NCBI GenBank assembly: GCA_028689145.1
Contig: JAQTWT010000002.1
Location: 289,533 to 353,532, forward strand
Direction of reading: 5' to 3'
Length of the DNA: 64,000 nucleotides
From: Gallionella sp.
Lineage (GTDB): Bacteria > Pseudomonadota > Gammaproteobacteria > Burkholderiales > Gallionellaceae
Every line of letters begins with the position of its first letter. Position 1 is the first letter of the stretch. Below the pieces are notes generated by a model. It had not been told where the DNA came from. It saw only the letters and a list, made by a program, of their open reading frames with translations, and ran no database searches. The translations under genes were made by a program, and so were the position numbers. Positions 11,826 to 45,758 of this stretch are shown here, in pieces.

Positions 11826-12680
11826 ATGAATATTGCAATGGACTTACCCGTTCCGACAGCCGTTGGCAGCTTGGATGGCTACATACAGACAGTGAACCGC
11901 TTTCCGCTGTTATCGCAGGAAGAGGAGTTCGCGTTAGCGACGCGTTTCAGAACCGAGAATGATTTGGATGCCGCTCGCGAATTGGTGTTATCCCATCTTC
12001 GCGTGGTGGTCAGCGTTGCGCGCGGTTTTGCCGGTTACGGGCTGCCCCAAGCGGATCTGATTCAGGAAGGCAACATCGGCCTGATGAAAGCCGTAAAACA
12101 CTACGATCCGGATCGCGGAGTGCGGTTGGTGTCGTTCGCACTGCACTGGATACGTGCCGAGATTCATGAGTTCGTGGTGCGCAACTGGCGCTTGGTTAAG
12201 ATCGCCACCACCAAGTCGCAGCGCAAGCTGTTTTTCAACTTGCGCAGCATGAAGCAGGGGTTGGAACAGCTAAAACCGCAACAGATCACTGAGATTGCCA
12301 AACAATTGAATGTCAGCGAGCATGACGTGGTCGAGATGGAGGCACGTTTTGCCGGACACGAGATCGCGCTGGAACCGGGTGGTAGCGATGATGATGAGAG
12401 CCATGCGCCGATTTATTATCTGCCCGACAGCGAAGAGCATGAGCCGTTGCGTATTCTGGAAACAGTTGAGCGTGAGCGCCTGCAAACATCCGGTTTGGCG
12501 CGCGCGCTGGATGGTCTGGATGAACGCAGCCGCCGTATCGTGAAAGCACGCTGGTTAAGTGAGGGAGACGCGGCAACCCTGCATGAATTGGCTGCCGAAT
12601 TCAATGTGTCCGCCGAACGCATCCGCCAAATTGAGCAGAAAGCATTAAGTAAAATGCATGCGGTGCTAGCTGCAGTTTGA
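11826..12680 (+). CDS. rpoH: Heat-shock sigma factor sigma-32
   Basis: RpoH box QRKLFFNLR, region 2 DLIQEGNIGLMKAV, region 4 SAERIRQIE; RBS AAGGAGG. Confidence 0.97.
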   Translation: MNIAMDLPVPTAVGSLDGYIQTVNRFPLLSQEEEFALATRFRTENDLDAARELVLSHLRVVVSVARGFAGYGLPQADLIQEGNIGLMKAVKHYDPDRGVRLVSFALHWIRAEIHEFVVRNWRLVKIATTKSQRKLFFNLRSMKQGLEQLKPQQITEIAKQLNVSEHDVVEMEARFAGHEIALEPGGSDDDESHAPIYYLPDSEEHEPLRILETVERERLQTSGLARALDGLDERSRRIVKARWLSEGDAATLHELAAEFNVSAERIRQIEQKALSKMHAVLAAV

Positions 12681-28988: not shown

Positions 28989-31067
28989 ATGCGCAATAAC
29001 CAGCCTGTCACCAATCGCGAATATGAACTGCGCGAAGGTTCAAACATCATTTCACGTACCGACAATAAAGGCATTATCACCGATTGCAACGACGAGTTTG
29101 TCGAGGCATCCGGATTTTCCCGCGAGGAGCTGATCGGCAAGCCGCATAACATCGTGCGCCACCCGGATATGCCGGAGGAAGCGTTCCGCGATGTCTGGGA
29201 TACGCTGAAGAGCGGGCGCCCTTGGGGCGGGTTGGTCAAAAACCGGCGCAAGAATGGCGATCACTACTGGGTGCGCGCTACCGCCACGCCCTTGCCGGAT
29301 GGCAGCGGCTATACCTCGGTGCGCAGCAAACCGGCACGTTCGGAGACGCAGGGTGCGGAAGCGCTCTACCAGCGCATGCGCAACGGGGAAAATATCCGTC
29401 TGGACGAGGGCTATATTCGGACGGCGGGTGTCATGAATTTCTTTAAAAAGATTAAAATTTCGCAACGCCTGATGCTGATGGTGGTTTTGCCCGTGGTGCT
29501 TGCCATCGCCCTGTTGAGCAATTGCTTATGGGCATTGCATGCCAGCAACGATGCAATGAAATCCGTTTACGAAGACCGTCTCGTCACTATGGACAGGTTG
29601 GGCAGGATCAATGATCTTAACCAGATGAGTCTGATCGATCTGCTGCTAGCATCGAGAACGGGAGCCGATAAGAGCACTGTCGGCGAACTATTGGGCAATG
29701 TCAAAAAGAACAAGGCCGACATCGATAAAACCTGGTCGGACATTATGGCGACACATCTTAATGAAGATGAAAAACCATTGGCTGCCGATCATGCCGCCAA
29801 GCGCGATGCCATGTGGGCACTCATTTTGAAAGCGGCGGATTTGATTGCCGCGGGCGATGTGGCGCGGGCCAATGATTTGTTTGACCATGAGTTGAAAAAT
29901 ATCAGGGACGAACAGGAAGAGTCCATCGATATACTCAATAACTATCAGGTAGCTTCGGCTGAAGCATCATATGGAAAGGGTGTGGAGCGATACAACCTCA
30001 ACCTGCAACTTGGTTTGGGGTTGGGTACTCTGGGTATTCTGATTACGCTGACGATCGCCGGGTTCAGCATGCGTCATATCAGCAGCAGCTTGCGCGAGGC
30101 CAGCGAGGCGGCAACGGCCATTGCCAACGGCGATCTTACCCGCCCCATGCCGCGTGCCGCACATGATGAAATTGGCGAACTGGTGGCCAAAATGTCCATT
30201 ATGCGCAATGCACTGCACGAAATGATCGCCTCGATGCGCGAAAATGTGGATGTGCTGAACCAGTCGGCTGTCGAGTTGTCGGCTTCAGCAAACAACAGCG
30301 CCCGCGCTTCGGAAAGCCAATCGGATGCGGCCTCCAGTATGGCTGCTGCGGTAGAGCAAATGTCCGTTTCTATCGACCATGTGGAAGAAGGTGCGCGTGA
30401 AACCCATGAGGTTACCCAATCTTCTGGAACCAGATCAGACGAAGGTGCGCGCATTATTCATGCCGCAGCTGAAGAAATGGGGCGTATCGCCGAGGCAGTC
30501 AAATCAACAGCAGGCACCATTCGCGAACTGGAAGGATTCTCCGAGCAGATTTCCAGTATTGCCGGTGTTATCAAGGATATTGCGGATCAAACCAACCTGC
30601 TCGCCTTGAATGCAGCCATTGAGGCGGCACGCGCCGGCGAACAGGGACGGGGTTTCGCCGTGGTGGCTGATGAGGTGCGCAAACTGGCAGAGCGTACCGC
30701 CAATTCCACCAAGGAAATTACCGGGATGGTCGTCATGATCCGTGAAGGAACGCAGCGCGCAGCGCAGGAAATGGAGGCGGGTGTCGTTCGTGTCAGTGAT
30801 GGTGTGAAACTGGCCCAACAGGCTGGCGAGTCGATGACGGGTATTCGCCAGGGTGCCGAGCAAACCAGCCGGGCGGTAAATGAAATTTCCAATGCGCTCA
30901 AGGAACAGACGATCGCGGCACGCGAGATCGCCCAACGGGTCGAGCAGATCGCACAGGGTTCCGAGTTAAATAGCGCGTCGGCGGCACTCACGGCCACCTC
31001 GGCGCAGCAAATGGAAAGTTTGGCCCGGCAGCTGCAAAAACTGTCCACGCGCTTCAGGATCGCGTAA
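28989..31067 (+). CDS. Aer-like PAS methyl-accepting chemotaxis protein
   Basis: PAS with [21 protein letters not shown]; two TMs with a periplasmic four-helix region; HAMP; [35 protein letters not shown]. Confidence 0.95.
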
Positions 31068-31101: not shown

Positions 31102-31518
31102 ATGCCGTTCTCGAAAAGGCTTAGTGTCGGCAATAGCATGTTGGGTGCCACACACCGGACTCTGAACAACAAAATTAACGTAATAGTTGGCTCGATTGCG
31201 GCCAGGGACGTTTCTGCTCTCTCTGATGCATTCGATTCATTTGAGAAATGTCTGAATACCTATTTCCTCGTTGAGGAGCAGTTTGCACGCGCGGTTAACT
31301 TCGACTTTACCCGGCATAAATTAACACACCAGAATTTGTTAAAGGATTTCAGGTTTATCAAAGAGGAGCTGCTGAATAAAAACGGCATATGGTCTGAGCA
31401 TGAGGAAAAATGCTATATCCAGGCCCTGAAGAATAGTCTTGTTCGATATGTCGAGGTGGATATCAAGCCGTTAAGGCTGGTATGTGATACTTGTCTCGAC
31501 GATTTCAAAATAAGCTGA
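31102..31518 (+). CDS. Hemerythrin-like protein with degenerate metal ligands
   Basis: SVGN..L..TH, YF..EE, H...H spacing matches bacteriohemerythrin; two His positions appear as Tyr. Confidence 0.65.
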   Translation: MPFSKRLSVGNSMLGATHRTLNNKINVIVGSIAARDVSALSDAFDSFEKCLNTYFLVEEQFARAVNFDFTRHKLTHQNLLKDFRFIKEELLNKNGIWSEHEEKCYIQALKNSLVRYVEVDIKPLRLVCDTCLDDFKIS

Positions 31519-31554
31519 ATTCCCGGCGCAGATAACAGGCGAAGGTGAGCGAAA

Positions 31555-32751
31555 ATGATCGTAAAGATACCCGTAAAACAACTCAGGGTCGGCATGTACC
31601 TCCACGACCTTAATTGCAGCTGGATAGATCATCCGTTTGCGCTCAACCGTTTTATGATCGACGATGCCGCCACTTTAAAAAAGATCCATGCTGCCGGTGT
31701 CGCGGAAGTCTATATCGACACCAAGCTCGGTTTGGGTGTCGATTTCTCGGAAGCCGAAGCGGAGGAAGAGGAAGAAATTGAAGCTCCAGTATCCGAGCCG
31801 ACCATTCTTGTCAAACGTTCCCCCGCCGAGGAATTCGAATATGCCAAGAATCTGTACTCCAATGCCAACCAGTTGATGCAGGACATGATGAAAGATGTCC
31901 GTATGGGCAAGCAAATCAAGGTGGAGCAATGCGAGCCGATGGTCGACAATATTCTCGATTCGATATTCAGCGCCCCCTCCGCGCTGCTGCCGCTGGCCCA
32001 AATCAAGACCAGCAACGAATACACCTTCCAGCACTCGGTTTCGGTCGCCGCGCTGGCGGTCGCGTTCGGGCGGGTACTGGAAATGCCGCGCACCGAGATC
32101 AAGGAGCTGGCGTTGGGCGGTTTGCTGCATGATGTGGGCAAGGCCATCGTGCCGGGGAATATATTGAACAAACCGGGCAAACTGGACGATGCGGAATTTG
32201 TCGTGATGAAGAGCCATGCGGCGAACACCGCCGACCTGCTCAAGGGGCTAGAGGGGATCAGCGAGGTCGCGTTTAATGCCGCCGCGCAGCACCACGAACG
32301 TTTTGACGGCTCCGGTTACCCGAAGGGGCTGAAAGGCGAGCAGATCAGCCAGCACGGCCAGATGCTCGCCATCGTGGATGTCTATGATGCGATCACCTCG
32401 ATCCGCGTCTATCACAAGGGCATGTCGCCGACCGAGGCATTAAGGAAAATGTACGAATGGAGCGGCAGCCACTTTAATCCCCGGCTGGTGCAGGCGTTCA
32501 TCAAAGGGATCGGTATCTATCCGGCGGGTTCGCTGGTGCGCATGGAGAGCGACAAGCTGGGTATCGTGCGGGAAGTTGTGCCGGACAAGTTGTTGCAGCC
32601 AGTCGTGCAATATATCTACGATTGCAAAAAAATGAGCTATATCCCGGCCGAGACGGTGAATCTTTCTGTCTCGGAGGACAAGATAAAGTCCCACGAGTCT
32701 TTCGAGAAGTGGGGCATCGATCAGGCTAAATGGGCTATGAGGCTCATCTGA
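31555..32751 (+). CDS. HD-GYP cyclic di-GMP phosphodiesterase with DUF3391-like N-terminus
   Basis: LRVGMYLHDL..W..HPF N-terminus, HSVSV, LLHDVGK, HHERFDGSGYP, YDAITS.R.YHK. Confidence 0.93.
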   Translation: MIVKIPVKQLRVGMYLHDLNCSWIDHPFALNRFMIDDAATLKKIHAAGVAEVYIDTKLGLGVDFSEAEAEEEEEIEAPVSEPTILVKRSPAEEFEYAKNLYSNANQLMQDMMKDVRMGKQIKVEQCEPMVDNILDSIFSAPSALLPLAQIKTSNEYTFQHSVSVAALAVAFGRVLEMPRTEIKELALGGLLHDVGKAIVPGNILNKPGKLDDAEFVVMKSHAANTADLLKGLEGISEVAFNAAAQHHERFDGSGYPKGLKGEQISQHGQMLAIVDVYDAITSIRVYHKGMSPTEALRKMYEWSGSHFNPRLVQAFIKGIGIYPAGSLVRMESDKLGIVREVVPDKLLQPVVQYIYDCKKMSYIPAETVNLSVSEDKIKSHESFEKWGIDQAKWAMRLI

Positions 32752-36212: not shown

Positions 36213-36923
36213 TTAATAACCCTTCATCCAGCTGCGTAATCTTGCCACCGCCTGGCTGTGCAGCTGCGAAACGCGCGACTCGCCGACACCCAGCACTTCG
36301 CCGATTTCGCGCAGGTTCATCTCCTGCTCGTAGATCATGCCCATCAGCATCTTTTCACGTTCCGGCAGGCTGTCGATCGCGCGTACCAGTTCGGTCTTGA
36401 AACGCTCGTCTTCCAGCAGGTCGAGAGGGTTTGAGTCGTCGTTAAACTCGAAACGTTCGAAAAAATCATCGTGATCTTCGCCGTGAAAATCTTCGTAATA
36501 GACCAGCTGCGCGCCGCGCGATTCCTGCAGCAGTTGTTGATATTCCGGAAGAGATAACTTCATCTCTTCGGCAATCTCGGTTTCGTTCGGCGATCTGCCC
36601 AGCTTTTGTTGCAGGCAGTTGATGGCCGCTTCGATACGCCGCATATCGCGGCGCAAACTGCGCGGCAGCCAATCCGCCTCGCGCAGCTCGTCCAGCATCG
36701 CGCCGCGGATACGCTGCGTCGCGTAGGTTTCGAACTGTGCGCCGTGAAATTCATTGTAGCGGCTGGCGGCATCCAGCAAGCCCATCATGCCGGCCTGAAT
36801 GATGTCGTCGATCAGCACGCTGTGGGGCAGTTTAACCATCATTTTGTGCGCGATACGCTTCACCAGATGGGCATATTCCCTCAGGCATTGGTCCTTGTCG
36901 TTTAATCCTGATGCGTTGTACAT
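36213..36923 (-). CDS. fliA: Flagellar sigma factor sigma-28
   Basis: DDIIQAGMMGLLDAA, YATQRIRGAMLDELR..DW.PRS, EIGEVLGVGESRVSQLH. Confidence 0.97.
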   Translation of the reverse strand: MYNASGLNDKDQCLREYAHLVKRIAHKMMVKLPHSVLIDDIIQAGMMGLLDAASRYNEFHGAQFETYATQRIRGAMLDELREADWLPRSLRRDMRRIEAAINCLQQKLGRSPNETEIAEEMKLSLPEYQQLLQESRGAQLVYYEDFHGEDHDDFFERFEFNDDSNPLDLLEDERFKTELVRAIDSLPEREKMLMGMIYEQEMNLREIGEVLGVGESRVSQLHSQAVARLRSWMKGY

Positions 36924-37136: not shown

Positions 37137-38072
37137 TCAGCAATGTGTCAAGGCGGACGGTTGCGATACCTGCTTTATCAGGTTCTGAATGATGGTGGAT
37201 ACCCCGCCTTCCGCTTCATCCTGCCGCATTGAAAGGCGCAGCAACTTTTGCGACAGATTTGAGTAGGACTTTGCCGAGGCGGCAGCCGGGAACGCATCTA
37301 TTACCGACTTTCCCATGCGGGTCGCGAAGTTGATTCTGTCGTCCAAAGGGATGTAGCCCAGATATTCCAGATGCGCCGGAAGATTGCGCCGTGTCACCTT
37401 GGCCATATTCTCAAAAACCGTCATTGCCGCTTTTTCGTTGCCGGCCTTGTTCACCACGATCTCAAACTGCTGCCGCATATTGGCGGTAGCCAGACGCTTG
37501 ATCAGGGCGTAGCTCTCGGTGATGCCGCTGGGGGTGGCTTCTACCACCACCAGTAGCGCGGCACCGCTGACCAGGCTTGATGAAATAGTGGCTTGTCCGA
37601 CCAGCATTGCGGTATCCACCAGCATTACATCCATGCCGTCGCTGGCTTCGGTCAGCGCATTTTTGAGCCGTTGTTGTTCGGCTTGCTTCAACGCGGTCAT
37701 GCTGTCGCGAGCCTGGTATCTGCCGGTGGTGTCGGTCATCTGTAGCGCTTGCATGGCGCGCGCAGCCGGTAAGATGCCAAATCCCATATTGGTGAGCACT
37801 GCATCGCGGAGTTTGCATTTGCCCTGCGCGACGTCCAGCAAATCATATTTCGGGAATAAACCCAAACGATCCGGCAAATTATTCGGTGCATGGTTTTCGT
37901 CCAGCACCAGTACGTTCTTGCCTGAATAAGCCAGTGCCGTTGCCAGATTAATGGTTGCGCTGGTTCGCCCGACACCGGCTTTGCCGGCCACTACGGTAAT
38001 TACCTGCGTCTGGTTGCATACCAATAAACGCCGTAACCCTTCGGCTTGATCCATTCCGCAATCAGAATGCAT
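37137..38072 (-). CDS. flhG: FlhG/FleN MinD-like flagellar number regulator
   Basis: DQAEGLRRL N-terminus, deviant P-loop GKAGVGRT, ESYALIK, VVNK, YLGYIP.D; follows flhF. Confidence 0.88.
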   Translation of the reverse strand: MHSDCGMDQAEGLRRLLVCNQTQVITVVAGKAGVGRTSATINLATALAYSGKNVLVLDENHAPNNLPDRLGLFPKYDLLDVAQGKCKLRDAVLTNMGFGILPAARAMQALQMTDTTGRYQARDSMTALKQAEQQRLKNALTEASDGMDVMLVDTAMLVGQATISSSLVSGAALLVVVEATPSGITESYALIKRLATANMRQQFEIVVNKAGNEKAAMTVFENMAKVTRRNLPAHLEYLGYIPLDDRINFATRMGKSVIDAFPAAASAKSYSNLSQKLLRLSMRQDEAEGGVSTIIQNLIKQVSQPSALTHC

Positions 38073-39585
38073 AGGATGTCTCCTTGCTTGTTCCTGCTAC
38101 GCGCGGGTTATTCGGCACCGCTCCCTTTGCCGGGGTTCGTAGCGGACCTTCAGTAGCCATCAATACCGGGAAATCCAGTTCGCGCAAAGTGAACGGCGAT
38201 TTTTCTTCCGCCTGCTTGAGCGCCCGATGCAGCAGATAATCGGCATTGATGAGATGCAGGTCTTCCGGCACGCGCTGGCCGTTTGCCATGTAGTGCATTG
38301 TCAGACGATGGCGCACCGCCACATCCAGCACCGTGCCGACATTGACAGCTTCATCCAGCTTGGTGGTGATGCAGCCGATCACCTTATTGCTGCGGTACAT
38401 GCGCACCACTTCTTCCAGCGTATCGCCGCCGCTGGTGGCATTCAATAACAGCAGGCACTTCACGCCGGTCGCATCGAACATCTCGTTCTGGTTGAATACA
38501 CGCTCGTCGCGTTGTCCCATCCCGACGGTATCAATCAGCACCAGATGTTTGTGGCGCAGCGCGGAAAGTGTTACGCGCAGGTCATCGGTATCCTTTACCG
38601 CATGTACCGACAAACCGAGTATCTTGCCGTAAATCTTGAGTTGTTCGTAAGCGGCGATACGGTAGCTGTCGGTAGTCAGTAATGCGACCTTGTCCGCGCC
38701 GTAACGCACCACGGCACGAGCTGCCAGTTTTGCTGTGGTGGTGGTTTTTCCCACACCGGTCGGCCCGATCAGCGCGTACACCCCGCCCTTTTCAATAATG
38801 TCATCGGCCTTGTTGGTCACCAGTATGTTGCGTTTCAGTACCTGCTTGATCCACGGTTCACCTTGTTCTTTTCCGGCGGGCATCTTGTCCAGTAACTTGT
38901 GCGCCAGCACTGTGCTGAATCCGGCATTGAGCAATTTGCGCAATAAACCGGCACGTTGCGGGTCGCGCATTTGCACGTCGTTCCAGTACAGTGTCGCGAA
39001 CTGCTGGCGCAACATAGTACCGATCGATTTGATCTCGCTGATAATGTGCTCTTCCTGCTGCGAAGACGGTTGCTGGGTAGCCCCGGTCTGTTGCAAGGGT
39101 TTTGTTTGCCGTACAGGTTCTGCGAGCGGTAACGGTTCGGACTGCGGGAAAGATCTGGCCAACGGCGTGGATCTTTGGGGTGCAATTAGTTTCGGCTGTG
39201 ACGACTTGCCGGGATGGCGCAGGACACCGGGTGTTTGTGCCGATCCGGCAGTTTCAGAATTGAACTGAAGCGCCTGTCTGGGTTGATTTAACGGTTTGGC
39301 TTGCTGTGCCGGTTTGGCCGCATGTGACAGCATATCCGCAGGTTGCGCATGATGTTCTTCGTCGACCGATTGTGTCCATTCGTCCGCCGTAATCTCCGGC
39401 CATTCGCGTGGCTGAGTTACCGCGCTGGCGGTCAGATGGGCAATGTCGCCGTTCGCCAAAGCAACGATTTCAACGCCGTATTCGGTCTTGCGGTTCGACA
39501 GGATCATCGCGTCGGCCCCCAGCTCGTTACGGATCTCTTTCATTGCCTGACGCGCTGTCGGGGCGATGAATCTTCTGATGCTCAT
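38062..39585 (-). CDS. flhF: SRP-family GTPase FlhF
   Basis: GPTGVGKTTTTAKLAA, TTDSYRIAA.EQL, DTVG, TKLDE, GQRVPEDL; long Pro/Gln-rich B region. Confidence 0.95.
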   Translation of the reverse strand: MSIRRFIAPTARQAMKEIRNELGADAMILSNRKTEYGVEIVALANGDIAHLTASAVTQPREWPEITADEWTQSVDEEHHAQPADMLSHAAKPAQQAKPLNQPRQALQFNSETAGSAQTPGVLRHPGKSSQPKLIAPQRSTPLARSFPQSEPLPLAEPVRQTKPLQQTGATQQPSSQQEEHIISEIKSIGTMLRQQFATLYWNDVQMRDPQRAGLLRKLLNAGFSTVLAHKLLDKMPAGKEQGEPWIKQVLKRNILVTNKADDIIEKGGVYALIGPTGVGKTTTTAKLAARAVVRYGADKVALLTTDSYRIAAYEQLKIYGKILGLSVHAVKDTDDLRVTLSALRHKHLVLIDTVGMGQRDERVFNQNEMFDATGVKCLLLLNATSGGDTLEEVVRMYRSNKVIGCITTKLDEAVNVGTVLDVAVRHRLTMHYMANGQRVPEDLHLINADYLLHRALKQAEEKSPFTLRELDFPVLMATEGPLRTPAKGAVPNNPRVAGTSKETSYAF

Positions 39586-41675
39586 GCTCTACCTCCTACC
39601 ATAGCTGTTACCCGGATGGTTTTGAAGTCCGGTACTTCATCGTGTGAAATGACCCTGATGTTTGGCACGGCGCGTTTCAGGAAGCGCGCCAGCAGATCGC
39701 GCAACTGCGCGGGCACCAGCATCACTGCCGGCAATCCCATATTCTCTTGAGTTTCGGCGGCGGCGCGGGTTTCGCGCAGCACGGTATCGGCCAGTCCCGG
39801 CTCGATGCCGATGCCGTTCTGGCTCGATTGCATTGCCTGTATCAGGATGTATTCCAGTTCCTTGTCCATACCTATTACCTGCAATTCCTGCGCGGAAGGG
39901 TAAAACTGCTGCACGATGGCAGGACCGAGCGCGACGCGCACCAGCGCGGTGAGCTGGTACGGATCCTGGGTGCGCGACGCGTTTTCCGCCAGCGTTTCCA
40001 CGATGGTGCGCATATCGCGGATATGCATGCCTTCGTCCAGCAGGTTTTGCAGTACTTTCTGCACCACGCCCAGCGGCAGTGTCTTCGGCACCAGATCTTC
40101 AACCAGCTTGGGCGAGACTTTTGCGATATGGTCGAGCAGTTGCTGTACTTCCTGCCGTCCGAGCAATTCTGCGGCGCGTGAGCTGAGCAGGTGGCTCAGG
40201 TGTGTGGCTACGACAGTTCCCGGGTCGACCACGGTGTAGCCCATGACCTGCGCCTGGTCGCGCAGTGCGCTTTCGATCCATACCGCGGGCAAGCCAAAGG
40301 CCGGGTCGCGCGTCGGGATGCCGCCGTGCAACTCGCCTGTCACGTTACCCGGATTAATCGCCAGTAGCATATGCGTGTACGCCTCGCCGCTGCCGACATC
40401 CACGCCCTTGAGAGTGATACGGTAGCCGTTCGGGCGCAAGTCCAGATTGTCGCGAATGTGTACCGCGGGAGGCAGAAAGCCGATGTCCTGGGTAAATTTT
40501 TTGCGGATGCCTTTGATGCGGCGCAACAGGTCGCCGTCCTGTGTCTTATCCACCAGTGCGATCAGCCGGTAGCCTACTTCCAGCCCCAGTACATCGACTT
40601 GTTCTACATCTTCCCAGCGCGCCTCATTGGTCTCTGGGATAACCGGTACTACCTCGGCGGCAGTTTGTTCCAGCGCCGCCGCTTCCTGTTCGTTCTTTTG
40701 TATCAGGTAATAGGCCAGTGCACCCATCGCGCCGGCCAATGACAGGAAAGCAAAATGCGGCATGCTGGGGATCAAGCCCATCGAGCCGATAATGATTGCG
40801 GTCAGGATGATGATTTGCGGTTGTTTGAACAACTGCCGGATTAGTTGCTGCCCGATGTTTTCATCGCTGGCTACGCGGCTTACCACCAGACCGGCGGCAG
40901 TGGAGATTACCAGAGCCGGAATTTGCGCCACCAGGCCGTCGCCGATGGTCAGCAGGGTATAATTTTTTGCCGCCACGGAGATATCGAGATCATGCTGCAA
41001 CACACCAACCACCATACCGCCGATGATACTGATGAACAGGATGATGATGCCCGCGACCGCGTCGCCGCGCACGAATTTGCTGGCACCGTCCATCGCGCCG
41101 TAGAAATCGGCTTCCTGCGCGATCTCGGCGCGGCGTTTACGCGCCACGTCTTCACCGATTAGCCCCGCGTTCAGGTCGGCATCGATGGCCATTTGCTTGC
41201 CGGGCATCGCATCCAGAGTGAAACGCGCGCCCACTTCGGCAATGCGCCCGGCACCTTTGGTGATCACCACAAAGTTGATGACCACCAGAATCGCAAACAC
41301 CACGATACCGACGGCATAGTTGCCGCCCACCAGAAAATTCCCGAACGACTCGATTACCTTGCCTGCGGCATCCGGTCCGGTATGTCCTTCCAGCAATACG
41401 ACGCGGGTCGAGGCTACGTTCAATGACAAGCGCAACAATGTGGTGATCAGCAATACGGTGGGGAATATCGCAAAATCCAGCGCCTTGTTGGTGTTCATGC
41501 TGACCAGCAGCACCATGATCGAGACTGCGATGTTGAACGTGAACAGGATGTCCAGCAGCATCGGCGGCAATGGCAATACCATCATCGCCAGAATCAGCAC
41601 GATCAGCGCCGGACCGACCATGCCGATCAGCCCGGCGCGCTTAACAAAGTTTTGCAGTATCAGTAATATGTTCAT
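39582..41675 (-). CDS. flhA: Flagellar export gate FlhA
   Basis: GAGRIAEVGARFTLDAMPGKQMAIDADLN, FYGAMDGASKFVRGDA, IRDMRTI. Confidence 0.98.
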   Translation of the reverse strand: MNILLILQNFVKRAGLIGMVGPALIVLILAMMVLPLPPMLLDILFTFNIAVSIMVLLVSMNTNKALDFAIFPTVLLITTLLRLSLNVASTRVVLLEGHTGPDAAGKVIESFGNFLVGGNYAVGIVVFAILVVINFVVITKGAGRIAEVGARFTLDAMPGKQMAIDADLNAGLIGEDVARKRRAEIAQEADFYGAMDGASKFVRGDAVAGIIILFISIIGGMVVGVLQHDLDISVAAKNYTLLTIGDGLVAQIPALVISTAAGLVVSRVASDENIGQQLIRQLFKQPQIIILTAIIIGSMGLIPSMPHFAFLSLAGAMGALAYYLIQKNEQEAAALEQTAAEVVPVIPETNEARWEDVEQVDVLGLEVGYRLIALVDKTQDGDLLRRIKGIRKKFTQDIGFLPPAVHIRDNLDLRPNGYRITLKGVDVGSGEAYTHMLLAINPGNVTGELHGGIPTRDPAFGLPAVWIESALRDQAQVMGYTVVDPGTVVATHLSHLLSSRAAELLGRQEVQQLLDHIAKVSPKLVEDLVPKTLPLGVVQKVLQNLLDEGMHIRDMRTIVETLAENASRTQDPYQLTALVRVALGPAIVQQFYPSAQELQVIGMDKELEYILIQAMQSSQNGIGIEPGLADTVLRETRAAAETQENMGLPAVMLVPAQLRDLLARFLKRAVPNIRVISHDEVPDFKTIRVTAMVGGRA

Positions 41676-41684
41676 GGTTTATTT

Positions 41685-42836
41685 TTATGCGGCAGTCAAT
41701 GCGGCTGCCGGGTCGAGTTCGACCGGCACCGACAAGTTCGCCGGTTCATGCGGGCGCGCCCCGCCTTGCTTTTCGTAGCGGCGCAGCTGGTAGACGTAGG
41801 CCAATACTTCGGCGACGGCGGTATATAGCGCTTCCGGAATGGATTCGCCCAGTTCTGTATGCTTGTGCAGCGCGCGCGCCAGCGGTGGTGCTTCCAGTAT
41901 CGGCACATGGTTTTCTTCGGCGATCTCGCGAATGCGTAGCGCCAGCAGATGCGAACCCTTGGCGACTACAACCGGAGCGCCGAAGCCATTTTTGTCGTTG
42001 TATTTCAACGCCACGGCATAGTGCGTCGGGTTGGTTACCACCACGTCTGCGGTCGGGATTTCCGACATCATGCGGCGGCGTGCAGCCTCGCGTTGCAACT
42101 GGCGGATACGTCCCTTGACCATCGGGTCGCCTTCGGTCTCCTTGGATTCCTGTCGCACCTCTTCCTTGGTCATCATCAGCTTCTTGTTGTGATCCCATAA
42201 CTGGAACGGCACGTCGATAGCCACGATCAGCAGCATTGCGCCGATAATCATCATGGAGCAGGTGACCACCAGATTGCCCATTTGCGGAATGGCGGCAGCG
42301 GCCGGTTGCGTGCCGAGTGCCATCACCGCATCCTTGTTGTGCCAGATCACCCATGCCGCAATGCCGCCGACCAGAATGGATTTGCCGATCGCCTTGACCA
42401 GTTCCACCAGCGAGGTTCTGGAAAACATCCGGGAGATTCCGGAAATCGGATTTAGTTTGGAAAATTTCGGCTGCAGCGCTTCGATGCTGAACAGCCAGCC
42501 GTTGAGTATCAGTGGGGAGAACAATGCGGCAAGCAGAACCACGAGCAGCAAAGGTGCGAAGGTGATGAGTGCATCCAGCGAAAGCTCATACAGGCGCGGA
42601 ATCATCAAGCCGGTGTCGAATGCCATATCCCGGTCAATGGTTAGCCCGTCGCGCAATGACTTGACCATATGCTGGGTGAACGACGTGCCCATAAACCACA
42701 GCATACCGCCGCCCGCCAGCAATACGGCGAACGTGGACAGCTCGCGCGAACGCGCGACTTGACCTTTTTCTCTTGCCTGGTCAAGTCGTCGCTGTGAGGG
42801 TTGTTCGGTTTTTTCTAGATCGCTGTCTTCTGCCAT
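41685..42836 (-). CDS. flhB: Flagellar export switch FlhB
   Basis: EKTEQPS.RRL..AR.KGQ, EGDP.VK.R.R, VVTNPTHYAVAL autocleavage site. Confidence 0.98.
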   Translation of the reverse strand: MAEDSDLEKTEQPSQRRLDQAREKGQVARSRELSTFAVLLAGGGMLWFMGTSFTQHMVKSLRDGLTIDRDMAFDTGLMIPRLYELSLDALITFAPLLLVVLLAALFSPLILNGWLFSIEALQPKFSKLNPISGISRMFSRTSLVELVKAIGKSILVGGIAAWVIWHNKDAVMALGTQPAAAAIPQMGNLVVTCSMMIIGAMLLIVAIDVPFQLWDHNKKLMMTKEEVRQESKETEGDPMVKGRIRQLQREAARRRMMSEIPTADVVVTNPTHYAVALKYNDKNGFGAPVVVAKGSHLLALRIREIAEENHVPILEAPPLARALHKHTELGESIPEALYTAVAEVLAYVYQLRRYEKQGGARPHEPANLSVPVELDPAAALTAA

Positions 42837-43253
42837 ATTGGACTCCGCGGGTCATGGCAATTATCGGCAGCTTTGGCAAAGTTCAATCGCGTGAATAGCG
42901 ACGGTATTTTCTGTCTATTCAGCAAGTTTTACGTCATTCTTACACCGGTTTGACAACCCGATATGGGTTGTGAAAATTTAAGCTTTGCCCAAAATTTCCC
43001 CAAATATTCTGCTAGGATGAGTATGTGGAAAGATCATGAATAATCCGTAAGTAACGCATTGAAATAGAGAATGTTTGGATAGATATTCTTTTATCTATTT
43101 GATATTAAATAGATATAGTGTTTTTTGGTGTCGAATATGAACGTTATCAAGATCGTGAAATTCTTGTGTGATCATTTTTTGCCATCCTGAGGCAGGATGG
43201 CATCATGCAGGCAGAATCCGGGGCGGATGGGTTTTGATCGGGGAATATCGGGG

Positions 43254-45758
43254 TCAGGCACAAATGTAATAAGCGATGACCTCATTCCCTTTGCCAAAAT
43301 ATTCCAGTTTGTAGGCCATACTTTTCATCAGGGTGATGCCTCTGCCATGCTGCATCTGTTTAACTTGGCCGGGGGCGGGGGGCTGCATTGCCGCATAATC
43401 AAAGCCGTTGCCGCTGTCGGCCACACGAATCTTCACAGCTTGCCGGTTTTCAATGAATATTCTCTCGATGTCGATCTCGATCCTGCCGTTGCTGAGTTCC
43501 TGCATCCGCGTTTCGCGTAATTGCAGGAATTTGTCGAATCCGTCAGGCCCCAGTTTAATACCGGAATCAAGCTGCAATACACCGTGGTCGAGGGCGTTAT
43601 TGAACAATTCGGAAAGAATCAGGAATAGCGCGGAATGGTGTTCCCGGGTTACGTGAATTTTGGCGATGATTTGGGTGAGCAAAGGGACAACATCCAGGTA
43701 CTTCAGCTCGTTTGCGCCCAGACTGAGCGAAATTCTCCAGTCATCGCTTACTTCAGTCGTTTTGTGGGAATCCAGATTGCAGTGCAGTACGCCCGTATCT
43801 ATTTCGGCTGAAATATCCACCAATGCAAGCGAAATATCATCGTGCGCGCGTTGTCCGTGCAAGTGCCGGTCGAGTTTCGTGATCAGCGTCTCGAAGCGGG
43901 AGTGGTGCGCTGTTTCTTTGAATATTTCGACAATGCGTTCGTTGCCGAAGTACTCGCCCTGCGGAGAACAGGCTTCCGGCAGGCCGTCTGAAAACAGGCA
44001 CAACTGGCAATCTTCATCGTAAGAAAGAAACTCCGGCTTGCCGGAAAAATCTTCACCCGACAAGATACCCAACGGCAAATGCCTAGAATCGTAACTATGC
44101 AATAAACGGCCATTGCGCAGGAATAGCTGCGGCGCGGGGATTCCTCCATTCCATACTTCGACGATACGGGTCTGGCGGTTGATGGAAACCAGCGCGGCAG
44201 AAACAAAACGGTCCACCGGCATGAATTTGTTCACCAGTGAATTGAGCTCGACGGCGATCTCCTCGATGGAAAACCCCTTCGCGGTTAAATCGTAAAAAGA
44301 TTGGCATAACGGCAATACATTTATCGCGGCGCTAAGCCCGTGTCCGACCGCATCCGCCAGCAAAATATGCACGATGTTGTTTGGTGTTGTGGCTGCGATC
44401 AGGATGTCGCCGCTGAGATGGCTGGCCGATTTTGTGTAGCAGTGCATATAAGGAGCGACCTGTTCATCTATCTTGGTCATGCGCGACATGATGAAACTGC
44501 CGACACGCTGCTCTTCGTCTACACGGTCGCCGTATTCTTCCAGCACCAGTATCTTGCCGAGAAACTGTTGTTGCAATTCCACAACCCTGTCCAGCTTGCT
44601 GCCGGTGCGGCGGATCGGCCTCATGATACCGACGATGAACCAGATGGACAGCAGCAGGCCGCCCAAAGCCGCCGCCGCCAGTATTTCAACGGAACGGTCA
44701 CGCTGGAAACGGTAGGATTTCTCCAGCGCTTCATTGGTATCTCCCAGTCCGCGCAGCTGTTCTTCGCGAATCTTTGCGACAATCGCTTCAAAATCTTCGA
44801 TCACGCCGCGGTCGGCATCGCCGACCAGATTCTGGACAATCATGCTGGTCTCCGGCCGATGAATATCGAAAGATTTCAGCGCCGAGTGATATTGTTCGAC
44901 CAGTTGGGTATGCGACACCAACAACTCATCCAGAGCATCGGTAGACAACCCAAGTTGCTGCATGATCGGCTTTAACTGTCCGGTAAGCTTGCTTTCAACT
45001 TCATTCCCTTGCTGGTCGAATTTCTTCAGGTATTGCCGGAACAGCGTCGCATCGTGACCGCTAATCAAAATGTCTTTCCAAGTGTGCAATTGCTCCTTGA
45101 AAGTTGATTCTGCAACACGCGCGGTATCCACGGCATAAGCTTGTGTGCTGGAGGCGGCCAGACTTTCTAGCGCGTAATTGTTGGCTTGTGCCGCGATATA
45201 CAGGTTGAATATCCCGAAGATGACCAGCGTGCCGAGTAACATTGCGATGAGCGCCAGCAGCCGGATCTTGATGCTGATCGTTTCCATCCAGCGCAGCAGC
45301 CGGTTATTTGCCCGGATAACATTGCCGTCCTCGATGCGCAGCTTGGACAAGCCTCTGCGAATTTCCTGGTAAGCGACAGAGGCATACTTGATTTGATCGC
45401 GGGTGGCCTTGTAACGGAACGATACATAGCCGGTAGTTTTTCCATGTTCCTGCAACGGGGTGACGATGGCTGTCGTCCAGTAGTAACTGCCGTCTTTGCG
45501 CCGGTTTTTGACGATGCCCTGCCAGGGTTTGTTGGCTTTAATGGTTCGCCACAGGTCGGCGAACGCCTCGGGCGGCATGTCGGGATGACGAACTATATTG
45601 TGCGACGAACTGATCAGCTCATCGCGGCTATACCCGCTTATTTCGACAAACGTATTGTTGCAATAGGTGATGATCCCTTTGAGATCGGTTTTGGAAACGA
45701 TCACCGCGCCGTCCGGCAGCGTAAATTCAATATTGGAAACCGGCAAATTCAACCGCAT
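43254..45758 (-). CDS. Membrane sensor fusion: Aer-type PAS + periplasmic domain + PP2C/SpoIIE phosphatase + HATPase_c anti-sigma kinase
   Basis: [12 protein letters not shown]; two TMs; SGDILI, ADAVGHG, FSDGL, DDISL PP2C metal motifs; ELFNNALDHG, DSGNGF, HGRGI GHKL motifs. Confidence 0.88.
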   Translation of the reverse strand: MRLNLPVSNIEFTLPDGAVIVSKTDLKGIITYCNNTFVEISGYSRDELISSSHNIVRHPDMPPEAFADLWRTIKANKPWQGIVKNRRKDGSYYWTTAIVTPLQEHGKTTGYVSFRYKATRDQIKYASVAYQEIRRGLSKLRIEDGNVIRANNRLLRWMETISIKIRLLALIAMLLGTLVIFGIFNLYIAAQANNYALESLAASSTQAYAVDTARVAESTFKEQLHTWKDILISGHDATLFRQYLKKFDQQGNEVESKLTGQLKPIMQQLGLSTDALDELLVSHTQLVEQYHSALKSFDIHRPETSMIVQNLVGDADRGVIEDFEAIVAKIREEQLRGLGDTNEALEKSYRFQRDRSVEILAAAALGGLLLSIWFIVGIMRPIRRTGSKLDRVVELQQQFLGKILVLEEYGDRVDEEQRVGSFIMSRMTKIDEQVAPYMHCYTKSASHLSGDILIAATTPNNIVHILLADAVGHGLSAAINVLPLCQSFYDLTAKGFSIEEIAVELNSLVNKFMPVDRFVSAALVSINRQTRIVEVWNGGIPAPQLFLRNGRLLHSYDSRHLPLGILSGEDFSGKPEFLSYDEDCQLCLFSDGLPEACSPQGEYFGNERIVEIFKETAHHSRFETLITKLDRHLHGQRAHDDISLALVDISAEIDTGVLHCNLDSHKTTEVSDDWRISLSLGANELKYLDVVPLLTQIIAKIHVTREHHSALFLILSELFNNALDHGVLQLDSGIKLGPDGFDKFLQLRETRMQELSNGRIEIDIERIFIENRQAVKIRVADSGNGFDYAAMQPPAPGQVKQMQHGRGITLMKSMAYKLEYFGKGNEVIAYYICA

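Follow-up and report, generated by a model that had tools for sequence, protein, structure and literature searches.

A gene lying upstream of the flagellar flhB operon in Gallionella sp., within the 64,000-nucleotide stretch of contig JAQTWT010000002.1 that was analysed (hereafter, the window), encodes a mosaic protein built on a PP2C phosphatase and RsbW-type kinase core, with the receiver domain replaced by the sensing half of an Aer-type chemoreceptor. It is this replacement that is new, since partner switches with fused phosphatase and kinase were already known. Evidence from domain searches, structural models and the comparison of related loci points to a redox-responsive and ligand-responsive regulator of a small STAS protein, with sigma-28 and motility as its probable, if only modestly favoured, output.

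Domain architecture and the recombination junction

The open reading frame begins with ATG and encodes 834 amino acids, in which Pfam detects PAS_3 (residues 31-114, E 2.2e-17), SpoIIE/PP2C (463-648, 9.4e-31) and HATPase_c_2 (694-829, 2.3e-11), with hydrophobic stretches covering 166-190 and 358-380 and no match to Response_reg, HAMP or MCPsignal anywhere in the protein; the order of PAS, TM-periplasmic-TM, phosphatase and GHKL kinase without a receiver, as originally predicted, is thus borne out. The kinase domain forms the C-terminal end, with no STAS domain fused behind it in the translation or by Pfam, and the computed topology places both termini in the cytoplasm. The NCBIfam scan of the protein returned no named HsbR or CrsR model, only PAS and generic SpoIIE/SpoIIAB models, weakly. 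The AF2 model of the full protein (pTM 0.41) is unreliable for inter-domain geometry. The features are collected in Table 1.

Table 1. Features of the regulator gene and of the genes discussed with it (window coordinates; residues refer to the 834-aa protein)
Feature	Position	Strand	Evidence
Whole gene, PAS-TM-4HB-TM-linker-PP2C-RsbW-kinase	43254..45758 (incl. stop codon)	-	ORF list, Pfam, 100%-coverage homologues in independent assemblies
Aer-type FAD-PAS domain, cytoplasmic, residues 14-131	45366..45719	-	phmmer, Foldseek, contact residues
TM1, residues ~166-190	45189..45263	-	Kyte-Doolittle window maximum 2.49; AF2 helix 163-233
Predicted periplasmic four-helix domain, residues ~191-357	44688..45188	-	AF2, Foldseek, MCP homology
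TM2, residues ~358-380	44619..44687	-	Kyte-Doolittle window maximum 2.31; within AF2 helix 315-427
Helical linker from TM2 to PP2C, residues ~381-437	44448..44618	-	AF2 continuous helix 315-427; no HAMP
PP2C (SpoIIE/RsbU-type) Ser phosphatase, residues ~438-650	43809..44447	-	Pfam SpoIIE 9.4e-31, motifs, Foldseek
RsbW/SpoIIAB-type Ser kinase/anti-sigma-like GHKL domain, residues ~672-834	43257..43745	-	Pfam HATPase_c_2 2.3e-11, boxes, Foldseek
Putative sigma-28-type -10 element GCCGATAA, 35 nt upstream of flhB ATG	42861..42868	-	Sequence
flhB	41685-42836	-	Pfam
flhA	39582-41675	-	Pfam
flhF	38062-39585	-	Pfam, NCBIfam FlhF
flhG	37137-38072	-	Pfam
fliA	36213-36923	-	Pfam; NCBIfam FliA 299.6 bits
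Paralogous Aer-PAS/4HB chemoreceptor (MCP)	28989..31067	+	Pfam PAS_3-4HB_MCP_1-HAMP-MCPsignal

On sequence comparison, residues 1-394 are chemoreceptor-like (PAS-TM-periplasmic-TM) and residues 389-834 resemble PP2C-kinase partner switches, and the homology of the two parts to different families supports the domain-shuffling origin proposed earlier. The recombination junction maps by homology to the linker, where chemoreceptor similarity stops at residue 394 and PP2C-family similarity starts at 380-389; the linker motif VxLQQxFLxKILxLExYxDR is conserved among homologues. A HAMP domain after TM2 was considered and rejected, as Pfam finds none on the juxtamembrane stretch at E values up to 5 and the AF2 helix runs unbroken into the phosphatase.

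Sensory input

The PAS domain matches the Aer PAS structure 8DIK in a phmmer search against PDB (E 4e-38), gap-free and with identical residue numbering, and its model superimposes on that structure with a TM score of 0.96 and an rmsd of 0.8 A (Foldseek). It retains G28, H53, R57, L69, W70, N85 and R115, which are all the FAD contacts of E. coli Aer (listed in PMC9668731), including the key FAD residue W70 (bioRxiv 10.1101/2023.04.23.537977), and flavin binding is therefore predicted from the complete contact set. The likeness to E. coli Aer (about 50% identity in the PAS, H53, R57, W70, N85 and R115 kept, a membrane anchor after the PAS) ends there: Aer has no periplasmic domain, and its signal passes from PAS via HAMP into the kinase-control module of an MCP and on to CheA, whereas the Gallionella protein has a predicted periplasmic 4HB domain, a PP2C-kinase output and no HAMP. 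The route from PAS to PP2C would accordingly differ from the HAMP-dependent one of Aer.

The original prediction had noted a close similarity to the MCP encoded elsewhere in the window; this holds for the N-terminal 200 residues (46% identity, E 3e-51, with VKNRRK.G..YW common to both), but the similarity ends at TM1. A second family of Gallionellaceae chemoreceptors, of about 900 residues (e.g. L062:12855-15557), aligns in blast through the periplasmic domain and TM2 to residue 394, with 42% identity over residues 1-394 including the first residues after TM2 (RPI/RPL), and is encoded in the same che cluster; in these receptors, unlike the regulator, HAMP and MCPsignal follow, and signalling proceeds through CheA. 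The periplasmic domain, 37% identical to the same part of one such 900-aa MCP, is modelled by AF2 as four long helices (sub-model pLDDT 86.6), and its best Foldseek analogues are the 4HB ligand-binding domains of Vc1313, PcaY and NarQ, with TMt of 0.7 but non-significant E values of about 0.1. Scanned alone it matches no Pfam family, and a weak TarH match at TM1 (E 0.027) is the only 4HB-type Pfam signal in the protein. The earlier description of a one-component redox sensor needs a qualification: the protein would not be a purely redox sensor, because a putative periplasmic sensor domain is also present.

Phosphatase and kinase domains

In the PP2C domain, the metal motifs G450-D451, D469-A-V-G-H-G474, S590-D591-G592 and H639-D640-D641, which contain all the metal-binding Asp residues, do not vary among 64 homologues, and Foldseek matches this part to the PP2C domains of RssB, SiaA and SpoIIE. 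The kinase boxes are likewise intact (N box E717..N720-N721..D724-H725, G1 D781-S-G-N-G785, G2 G805-R-G807), and the top Foldseek match of the model is 3KE6, the RsbU and RsbW domains of Rv1364c. Both phosphatase and kinase activities are predicted from these metal sites and ATP-binding boxes.

The closest precedents are HsbR-HsbA of Pseudomonas aeruginosa and CrsR-CrsA of Shewanella oneidensis, which share PP2C followed by an RsbW-type kinase/anti-sigma domain in one chain, a small STAS target with phospho-Ser 56 (predicted for Gallionella), and linkage to che genes, as at the S. oneidensis che1 locus (che1-crsRA; PMC9855816). The Gallionella protein differs in having no receiver, and hence no phosphorelay input, and in carrying an FAD-type PAS and a pair of TM helices flanking a predicted four-helix domain in the periplasm, which make it membrane-bound. 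Rv1364c of Mycobacterium tuberculosis (PAS-PP2C-RsbW kinase-STAS) also fuses PAS to PP2C and an RsbW-like kinase, but it is soluble, has its own STAS at the C-terminus and a PAS outside the Aer FAD type, and is only 13-14% identical. The RsbP/RsbU-type phosphatases of Bacillus subtilis combine a sensor (PAS in RsbP), a helical linker and a PP2C domain that dephosphorylates STAS; they are soluble and without a fused kinase, and RsbP requires RsbQ.

Distribution and evolution

Nothing found speaks for a misassembled fusion or a pseudogene in decay, and the probability of either is negligible. About 65 protein clusters drawn from NCBI, JGI, ENA and Logan assemblies share this architecture, at 816-855 residues, as do 19 species-representative genomes, among them the closed chromosome CP194331; the reading frame is open, the catalytic motifs are all invariant and conservation runs across the junction. 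The agreement of independent assemblies with a closed chromosome indicates a real gene.

Of 301 genomes from the order, 65 encode REC-PP2C-kinase proteins with 33-43% identity to residues 387-832, and through these relatives the C-terminal half is assigned by homology to the HsbR/CrsR family; neither Pseudomonas nor Shewanella appeared among the best 80 genome loci. In the betaproteobacterial loci of the family, a REC-PP2C-kinase gene adjoins a STAS gene in 37 of 37 cases, usually after cheD-cheB (for instance cheB-STAS-REC-PP2C-kinase at locus L065). The tree places the REC types outside the Gallionellaceae clade (support 100/100), inside which input domains have been swapped repeatedly, REC being replaced by TM-HAMP, by a soluble PAS or by the PAS-TM-4HB-TM half of a chemoreceptor. 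In evolutionary terms, a receiver fed by a chemosensory pathway would have been exchanged for the sensing half of a chemoreceptor, short-circuiting the relay. HDOD genes accompany the HAMP-type paralogues. The novelty is consequently less than first implied: replacement of the receiver by an Aer-type chemoreceptor half stands, but sensor-swapped PP2C-kinases are common in the family and a PAS-PP2C-kinase fusion is known in Rv1364c.

The STAS partner

A STAS anti-anti-sigma partner, whose search had been recommended, was found next to the gene in relatives and as an orthologue in the same genome. The STAS gene lies directly upstream of the regulator gene in Ferrigenium and the other loci inspected, and the reconstructed ancestral order is cheB-STAS-gene-flhBAFG-fliA. 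In a census of 79 related loci, STAS occurred within 3 kb in 73, and the five intact loci that lack it coincide with the subclade of the window (78-81%); no STAS gene adjoins the regulator in the window. The orthologue in the same genome (79% identical, with the D55-S56 phospho-site, and matching the anti-sigma-factor antagonist model TIGR00377) sits after MCP-cheR-cheD-cheB on a different contig (C7:281725-282039). From this gene order, the partner in the subclade stayed behind after cheB and became unlinked from the regulator gene. Because the STAS gene lies apart from the regulator gene and seven close paralogues exist (eight HsbA-like STAS proteins in total), the cognate pair is assigned by orthology alone.

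These paralogues adjoin, by eye from the sequence, HD-GYP-like and hemerythrin-like proteins and MCPs. The genome also encodes four kinase-less REC-PP2C phosphatases, and a PAS-GGDEF-EAL-like protein (by eye) adjoins a REC-PP2C gene. A tblastn search of the genome with the kinase domain gave no second RsbW-type kinase, the only other HATPase_c_2-like match being a stressosome-like fused protein on contig C16. Relatives of the regulator at 48-53% identity adjoin an EAL-GGDEF gene instead.

Flagellar neighbourhood and sigma factors

The predicted position of the gene upstream of flhB...fliA on the same strand was confirmed, with a gap of 418 bp to flhB, after which Pfam identifies flhB, flhA, flhF, flhG, fliA, motA and motB in this order. 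The octamer GCCGATAA recurs at the same distance from flhB in L059, L063 and Ferrigenium (L044/L045), while L062 and L060 have near-matches; despite this perfect, conserved -10 octamer, no canonical -35 element was matched by eye upstream of flhB. The octamer suggests a separate, putatively sigma-28-dependent promoter for the flhB operon. Adjacency of regulator and flhB is restricted to Gallionellaceae (0 of 37 REC-type loci), and what is conserved across the family is linkage to the che cluster and the STAS gene, not to flagellar genes. Proximity to fliA is thus weak evidence for a sigma-28 output, because the flhB adjacency is lineage-specific and the flhB promoter apparently its own.

With regard to the sigma factors available, RpoS, the target of CrsR, was rejected: the genome (96.7% complete) holds no orthologue, the best match, at 274 bits, falling short of the cut-off of 378.7. 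This separates the protein from CrsR, as does the unlinked STAS gene in the window's subclade. FliA and RpoH are the only group-3 sigma factors, and the genome also encodes FlgM (C7:104905-105063).

Proposed mechanism and alternative outputs

In the mechanism that we favour with modest confidence, the protein would set STAS phosphorylation according to redox state and periplasmic ligand, and thereby feed sigma-28 and motility. It would form a dimeric inner-membrane sensor that both phosphorylates and dephosphorylates a small STAS protein, an anti-sigma-factor antagonist like HsbA and CrsA. Oxidation or reduction of the FAD in the PAS domain, together with a periplasmic ligand on the four-helix domain, would alter the packing of the continuous TM2-linker helix, and this would shift the balance between PP2C and kinase, in line with the coiled-coil linker model of RsbU-type phosphatases (PMC12143880). 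The phosphorylation state of STAS would then determine its choice of binding partner, so that sigma-28 is released or sequestered through FlgM, as described for HsbR/HsbA/FlgM (PMC6482189). Expression of the genes for flagella and chemotaxis would in this way follow the redox conditions of Fe(II)/O2 gradients. Sigma-28 through FlgM is the most likely output because FlgM and FliA are present, RpoS is absent and the ancestral site lies between the che operon and flhBAFG-fliA. Several observations weigh against this mechanism: the HAMP domain used by Aer is missing here, the STAS gene is unlinked and one of eight, flhB adjacency is confined to one lineage, and the relatives at 48-53% identity adjoin an EAL-GGDEF gene.

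The kinase domain might instead be the anti-sigma factor itself, binding FliA or possibly RpoH until displaced by unphosphorylated STAS, with FlgM uninvolved. Direct anti-sigma kinases have precedents in CrsR-RpoS, RsbW-SigB and SpoIIAB-SigF. FliA, encoded five genes downstream and one of the two sole group-3 sigma factors, scores 106 bits on the SigB/F/G subfamily model, which places it in the sigma class bound by RsbW-type proteins, and the kinase domains of CrsR and HsbR bind RpoS directly (PMC6482189). This direct reading is nevertheless improbable, given that a dedicated FlgM is already present and that no characterised precedent was found for an anti-sigma kinase of this sort that is anchored in the membrane. 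Nor do we know of an RsbW-type protein that sequesters a proteobacterial FliA, which counts further against it.

It is also conceivable, though still unlikely, that the switch acts on something other than a sigma factor: through its phospho-state, STAS would govern c-di-GMP enzymes or the chemosensory apparatus, and thereby set motility against attachment at the post-translational level. Phospho-HsbA binds and activates the cyclase HsbD (PMC5085249, PMC6482189), and the neighbours described above, namely the che rather than flagellar genes conserved in the family, the HDOD genes of HAMP-type paralogues, the EAL-GGDEF gene of distant members and the genes near the STAS paralogues, are in agreement with such an output; however, no cyclase or phosphodiesterase adjoins the regulator gene or the orthologous STAS in this genome, and a c-di-GMP or Che output is compatible with one through sigma-28, the two occurring together in Pseudomonas. 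A wider proposal, of comparably low probability, is that the protein alone phosphorylates the STAS proteins of the cell on Ser and would thus be the redox-gated hub of a many-branched partner-switching network, linking chemosensory, c-di-GMP and sigma-28 modules in the swim-or-settle decision of iron oxidisers in opposing Fe(II)/O2 gradients, with the PAS acting directly on the TM2-PP2C helix without HAMP.

Significance

The family provides a natural input-swap series (REC, TM-HAMP, soluble PAS and PAS-TM-4HB-TM) on one phosphatase-kinase core and in one genomic slot, and this corresponds to the modular exchange of inputs predicted for coiled-coil-linked PP2C phosphatases (PMC12143880). Should the FAD-PAS prove to control the switch without HAMP, the protein would offer a tractable system for signal transmission by Aer-type PAS domains. 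Gallionellaceae occupy narrow Fe(II)/O2 bands, and sensing takes up about a tenth of their genes (PMC3770913); on the same condition, the family would show how uncultivated iron oxidisers turn redox state into a motility decision, whether transcriptional or behavioural.

Domain architecture

The target, described in the original prediction as a PAS sensor joined to PP2C phosphatase and GHKL kinase-type domains and devoid of a receiver, was resolved by Pfam into these same parts, and the scan of the protein found no receiver, HAMP or MCP signalling domain. Two hydrophobic segments (residues 166-190 and 358-380) each carry basic residues at their cytoplasmic side, which makes the PAS domain and the enzymatic half cytoplasmic and residues ~191-357 periplasmic. 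The PAS domain aligns without gaps to the E. coli Aer PAS crystal structure 8DIK (E 4e-38), so that residue numbers coincide, and its model matches 8DIK with a TM of 0.96 and an rmsd of 0.8 Å (Foldseek). At the flavin contacts of 8DIK, namely H53, R57, M69, W70, N85 and R115 plus a Gly at 28 (PMC9668731), the target has G28, H53, R57, L69, W70, N85 and R115; W70 is regarded as diagnostic of FAD-PAS domains (bioRxiv 10.1101/2023.04.23.537977). The periplasmic domain matches no Pfam model; it forms four long helices in an AF2 sub-model (pLDDT 86.6), and its closest structures in Foldseek are chemoreceptor four-helix ligand-binding domains, at a similarity that is not statistically significant. 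In the AF2 model of the protein a single helix (315-427) carries TM2 on into the PP2C domain, and Pfam finds no HAMP in this linker.

In Foldseek the fold of the enzymatic half comes closest to 3KE6, the fragment of M. tuberculosis Rv1364c that spans RsbU+RsbW; the PP2C domains of RssB and SiaA come next. The PP2C metal-binding aspartates (D451, D469, D591, D640/D641) are invariant across 64 homologues, and the kinase retains its N, G1 and G2 boxes in the target as well as in every relative at least 54% identical to it. The deepest full-length relatives (proteins P0055, P0061 and P0063-P0070, loci L046 and L061; 48-56% identical, 816-829 aa) still have the PP2C motifs and the N box, but their G1 and G2 ATP-binding boxes are gone and the kinase is therefore probably dead; at the two loci inspected (P0063 in L061, P0070 in L046) the gene is convergent with an EAL-GGDEF gene and does not adjoin flhB.

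Coordinates of the target, its domains and related features (C, contigs of the same genome)
Feature	Location	Strand	Details
Target gene	window 43254-45758	minus	834 aa; ORF list and translation
PAS_3	target residues 31-114		Pfam 2.2e-17
SpoIIE/PP2C	target residues 463-648		Pfam 9.4e-31
HATPase_c_2	target residues 694-829		Pfam 2.3e-11
flhB, flhA, flhF, flhG, fliA, motA, motB	downstream of target	same as target	
Sigma-28-type -10 octamer GCCGATAA	window 42861-42868	minus	perfect; 35 nt 5' of flhB ATG
Paralogous PAS/4HB chemoreceptor	window 28989-31067		46% identical to target residues 1-200
138-aa ORF, then DUF3391/HD-GYP-type (HD_5) protein	window 31102-32751		ORF without family match
RpoH	window 11826-12680		
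STAS orthologue	C7:281725-282039		
Kinase-less REC-PP2C	C17:107811-108989; C23:100390-101517; C23:112871-114034; C8:934-2061		
Other STAS paralogues	C23:74660-75145, 82106-82471, 89846-90223, 94405-94830, 133873-134217; C17:113176-113484; C4:15815-16129		
RsbW/RsbT-like protein	C16:72952-74028		358 aa
RsbR-like protein	C16:74169-75029		286 aa; next gene

Distribution and mosaic origin

Over its full length the target aligns (48-83% identity) with about 65 protein clusters, which come from NCBI, JGI, ENA and Logan assemblies and bear the names Gallionella, Nitrosomonadales or Ferrigenium. A scan of species-representative genomes recovered the PAS-TM-periplasmic-TM-PP2C-kinase layout in 19 genomes, one of them the closed Candidatus Ferrigenium straubiae chromosome. 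Conservation among homologues spans the domain junction, and together with the independent assemblies this rules out an assembly chimera for practical purposes.

Relatives of the C-terminal half (387-832), proteins of ~570 aa and 33-43% identical, occur in 65 of 301 genomes of the order; the one inspected (locus L065) reads cheB-STAS-[REC-PP2C-kinase]. In a census of the best 79 loci from named genomes, one of them cut off at the N-terminus, CheB adjoins 24 of the 37 REC-type loci, and all other input types come from Gallionellaceae-like genomes.

Input types in the census of the best 79 loci
Input	Loci	STAS within 3 kb	flhB within 3 kb
REC	37	37	0
TM-HAMP	15	15	6
Soluble PAS	7	7	4
PAS-TM-4HB-TM	19	14	15

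The five PAS-TM-4HB-TM loci without a STAS gene are the window-like ones. In a maximum-likelihood tree built from the C-terminal halves, REC types fall outside a Gallionellaceae clade (support 100/100), within which the three sensor types are interleaved and at least six input changes are required. In other Gallionellaceae two or three PP2C-kinase sensors of the TM-HAMP and soluble PAS types stand in tandem between cheB-STAS and flhB (L062 on G029 C9, L063 on G053 C9; census loci L079, L081, L087, L090, L095 and L103), often separated by an HDOD protein and a further CheD.

Residues 1-394 share 42-44% identity with ~900-aa PAS-TM-periplasmic-TM-HAMP chemoreceptors of the same che cluster (37% for the periplasmic part alone, E 1e-35). 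For residues 389-834 the identity to PP2C-kinases of the HAMP and soluble PAS types is 50-60%, and the junction lies at the first residues after TM2 (RPI in the target, RPL in the MCP). These segment comparisons identify the target as a mosaic of a chemoreceptor sensing half and a PP2C-kinase half, and the predicted graft of a chemoreceptor input onto a partner-switching output is thus correct as evolutionary history; the predicted resemblance of the N-terminus to the paralogous chemoreceptor also holds, with both quoted motifs present. In effect, a receiver listening to a chemosensory pathway gave way to the sensing half of a receptor itself.

Fused PP2C-kinase switch proteins are already known (HsbR, CrsR, Rv1364c), as are PP2C phosphatases with PAS, HAMP, GAF or REC inputs (PMC12143880) and Aer-type PAS domains on kinases, cyclases and chemoreceptors (bioRxiv 10.1101/2023.04.23.537977). 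The layout seen in the census is also that of CrsR-CrsA, whose genes close the Shewanella che1 locus (PMC9855816), and that of HsbR-HsbA (PMC6482189). A receiver is a defining feature of HsbR and CrsR, and HAMP plus a signalling domain one of Aer and MCPs; since the target lacks all of these, it is classed as a variant of the HsbR/CrsR kind and a member of neither group. No paper on such a system in Gallionellaceae was found in the literature, nor any account of precisely this architecture.

Genomic context and the STAS partner

The position upstream of flhB...fliA on the same strand agrees with the original prediction, and the STAS partner that it suggested looking for adjoins the target gene in relatives. 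In Ferrigenium and other 59-62% relatives the order is cheA-cheW-MCP-cheR-cheD-cheB-STAS-target gene-flhB-flhA-flhF-flhG-fliA-motA, the STAS gene (104 aa) lying 48 bp upstream of the target homologue. In the window's subclade (76-81% identity) this gene is absent there and msbA lies upstream, as in the window itself. The genome of the window still encodes the orthologous STAS protein (79% identical) on contig C7, last in line after MCP-MCP-cheR-cheD-cheB. A rearrangement has thus split the ancestral cluster exactly between the two genes. The C7 protein scores as an anti-sigma-factor antagonist (NCBIfam TIGR00377) and has Asp55-Ser56, the latter corresponding to the phosphorylated position of HsbA (PMC6482189).

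The octamer GCCGATAA recurs at the same spacing before flhB in Ferrigenium (L044/L045), L059 and L063, with near-matches in L062 and L060; no canonical -35 element was matched by eye upstream of flhB. Because the octamer is conserved at a fixed distance, the flhBAFG-fliA operon may be sigma-28-dependent, i.e. autoregulated. Elsewhere in the window, the HD-GYP-type protein and the small ORF directly after the Aer-PAS chemoreceptor may form a c-di-GMP phosphodiesterase module tied to it.

Likely mechanism and output

By homology, the kinase and PP2C domains would both have Ser56 in the STAS protein as their substrate. In the model for RsbU-type phosphatases, inputs alter how crossing linker helices pack, and thereby the active PP2C dimer (PMC12143880); coupling in the target would follow this coiled-coil model. 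Since the linker directly continues TM2, the periplasmic four-helix domain could act on it through a piston or scissor movement. In Aer, the FAD-PAS docks on HAMP; that of the target would need another docking site, the linker or the PP2C switch helices, and this is the least certain step of the mechanism.

Sigma-70-family matches in the genome (96.7% complete) comprise RpoD, RpoH, FliA and one short ORF; no RpoS orthologue was found in it, so that the target of CrsR is unavailable. FlgM, FliA and RpoH are encoded, and sigma-28 control through FlgM is the favoured output, on the analogy with HsbA and the ancestral slot between che and flhBAFG-fliA. As alternatives, the kinase domain would sequester FliA directly, or the output would be non-transcriptional, on c-di-GMP or Che proteins.

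Possible partner-switching network

Four of the six SpoIIE-family proteins in the genome are REC-PP2C proteins without a kinase domain, and about eight closely related HsbA-like single-domain STAS proteins are encoded; judged by eye from sequence, the latter adjoin MCPs, an HD-GYP protein and a hemerythrin-like protein, and a PAS-GGDEF-EAL-like protein adjoins one REC-PP2C. By kinase-domain tblastn the target is the sole strong RsbW-type kinase. The gene complement looks like an expanded partner-switching network and suggests one kinase opposed by several phosphatases. On C16, one protein combines an RsbW/RsbT-like HATPase_c_2 region with a PP2C domain that is weak and possibly degenerate, and the next has a STAS domain at its end; the pair may be a stressosome-like remnant.

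The appeal of the system lies in the natural series of inputs exchanged at a single locus, in an Aer-type PAS domain that would signal without HAMP, and in the possible role of the target as a hub of the partner-switching network.
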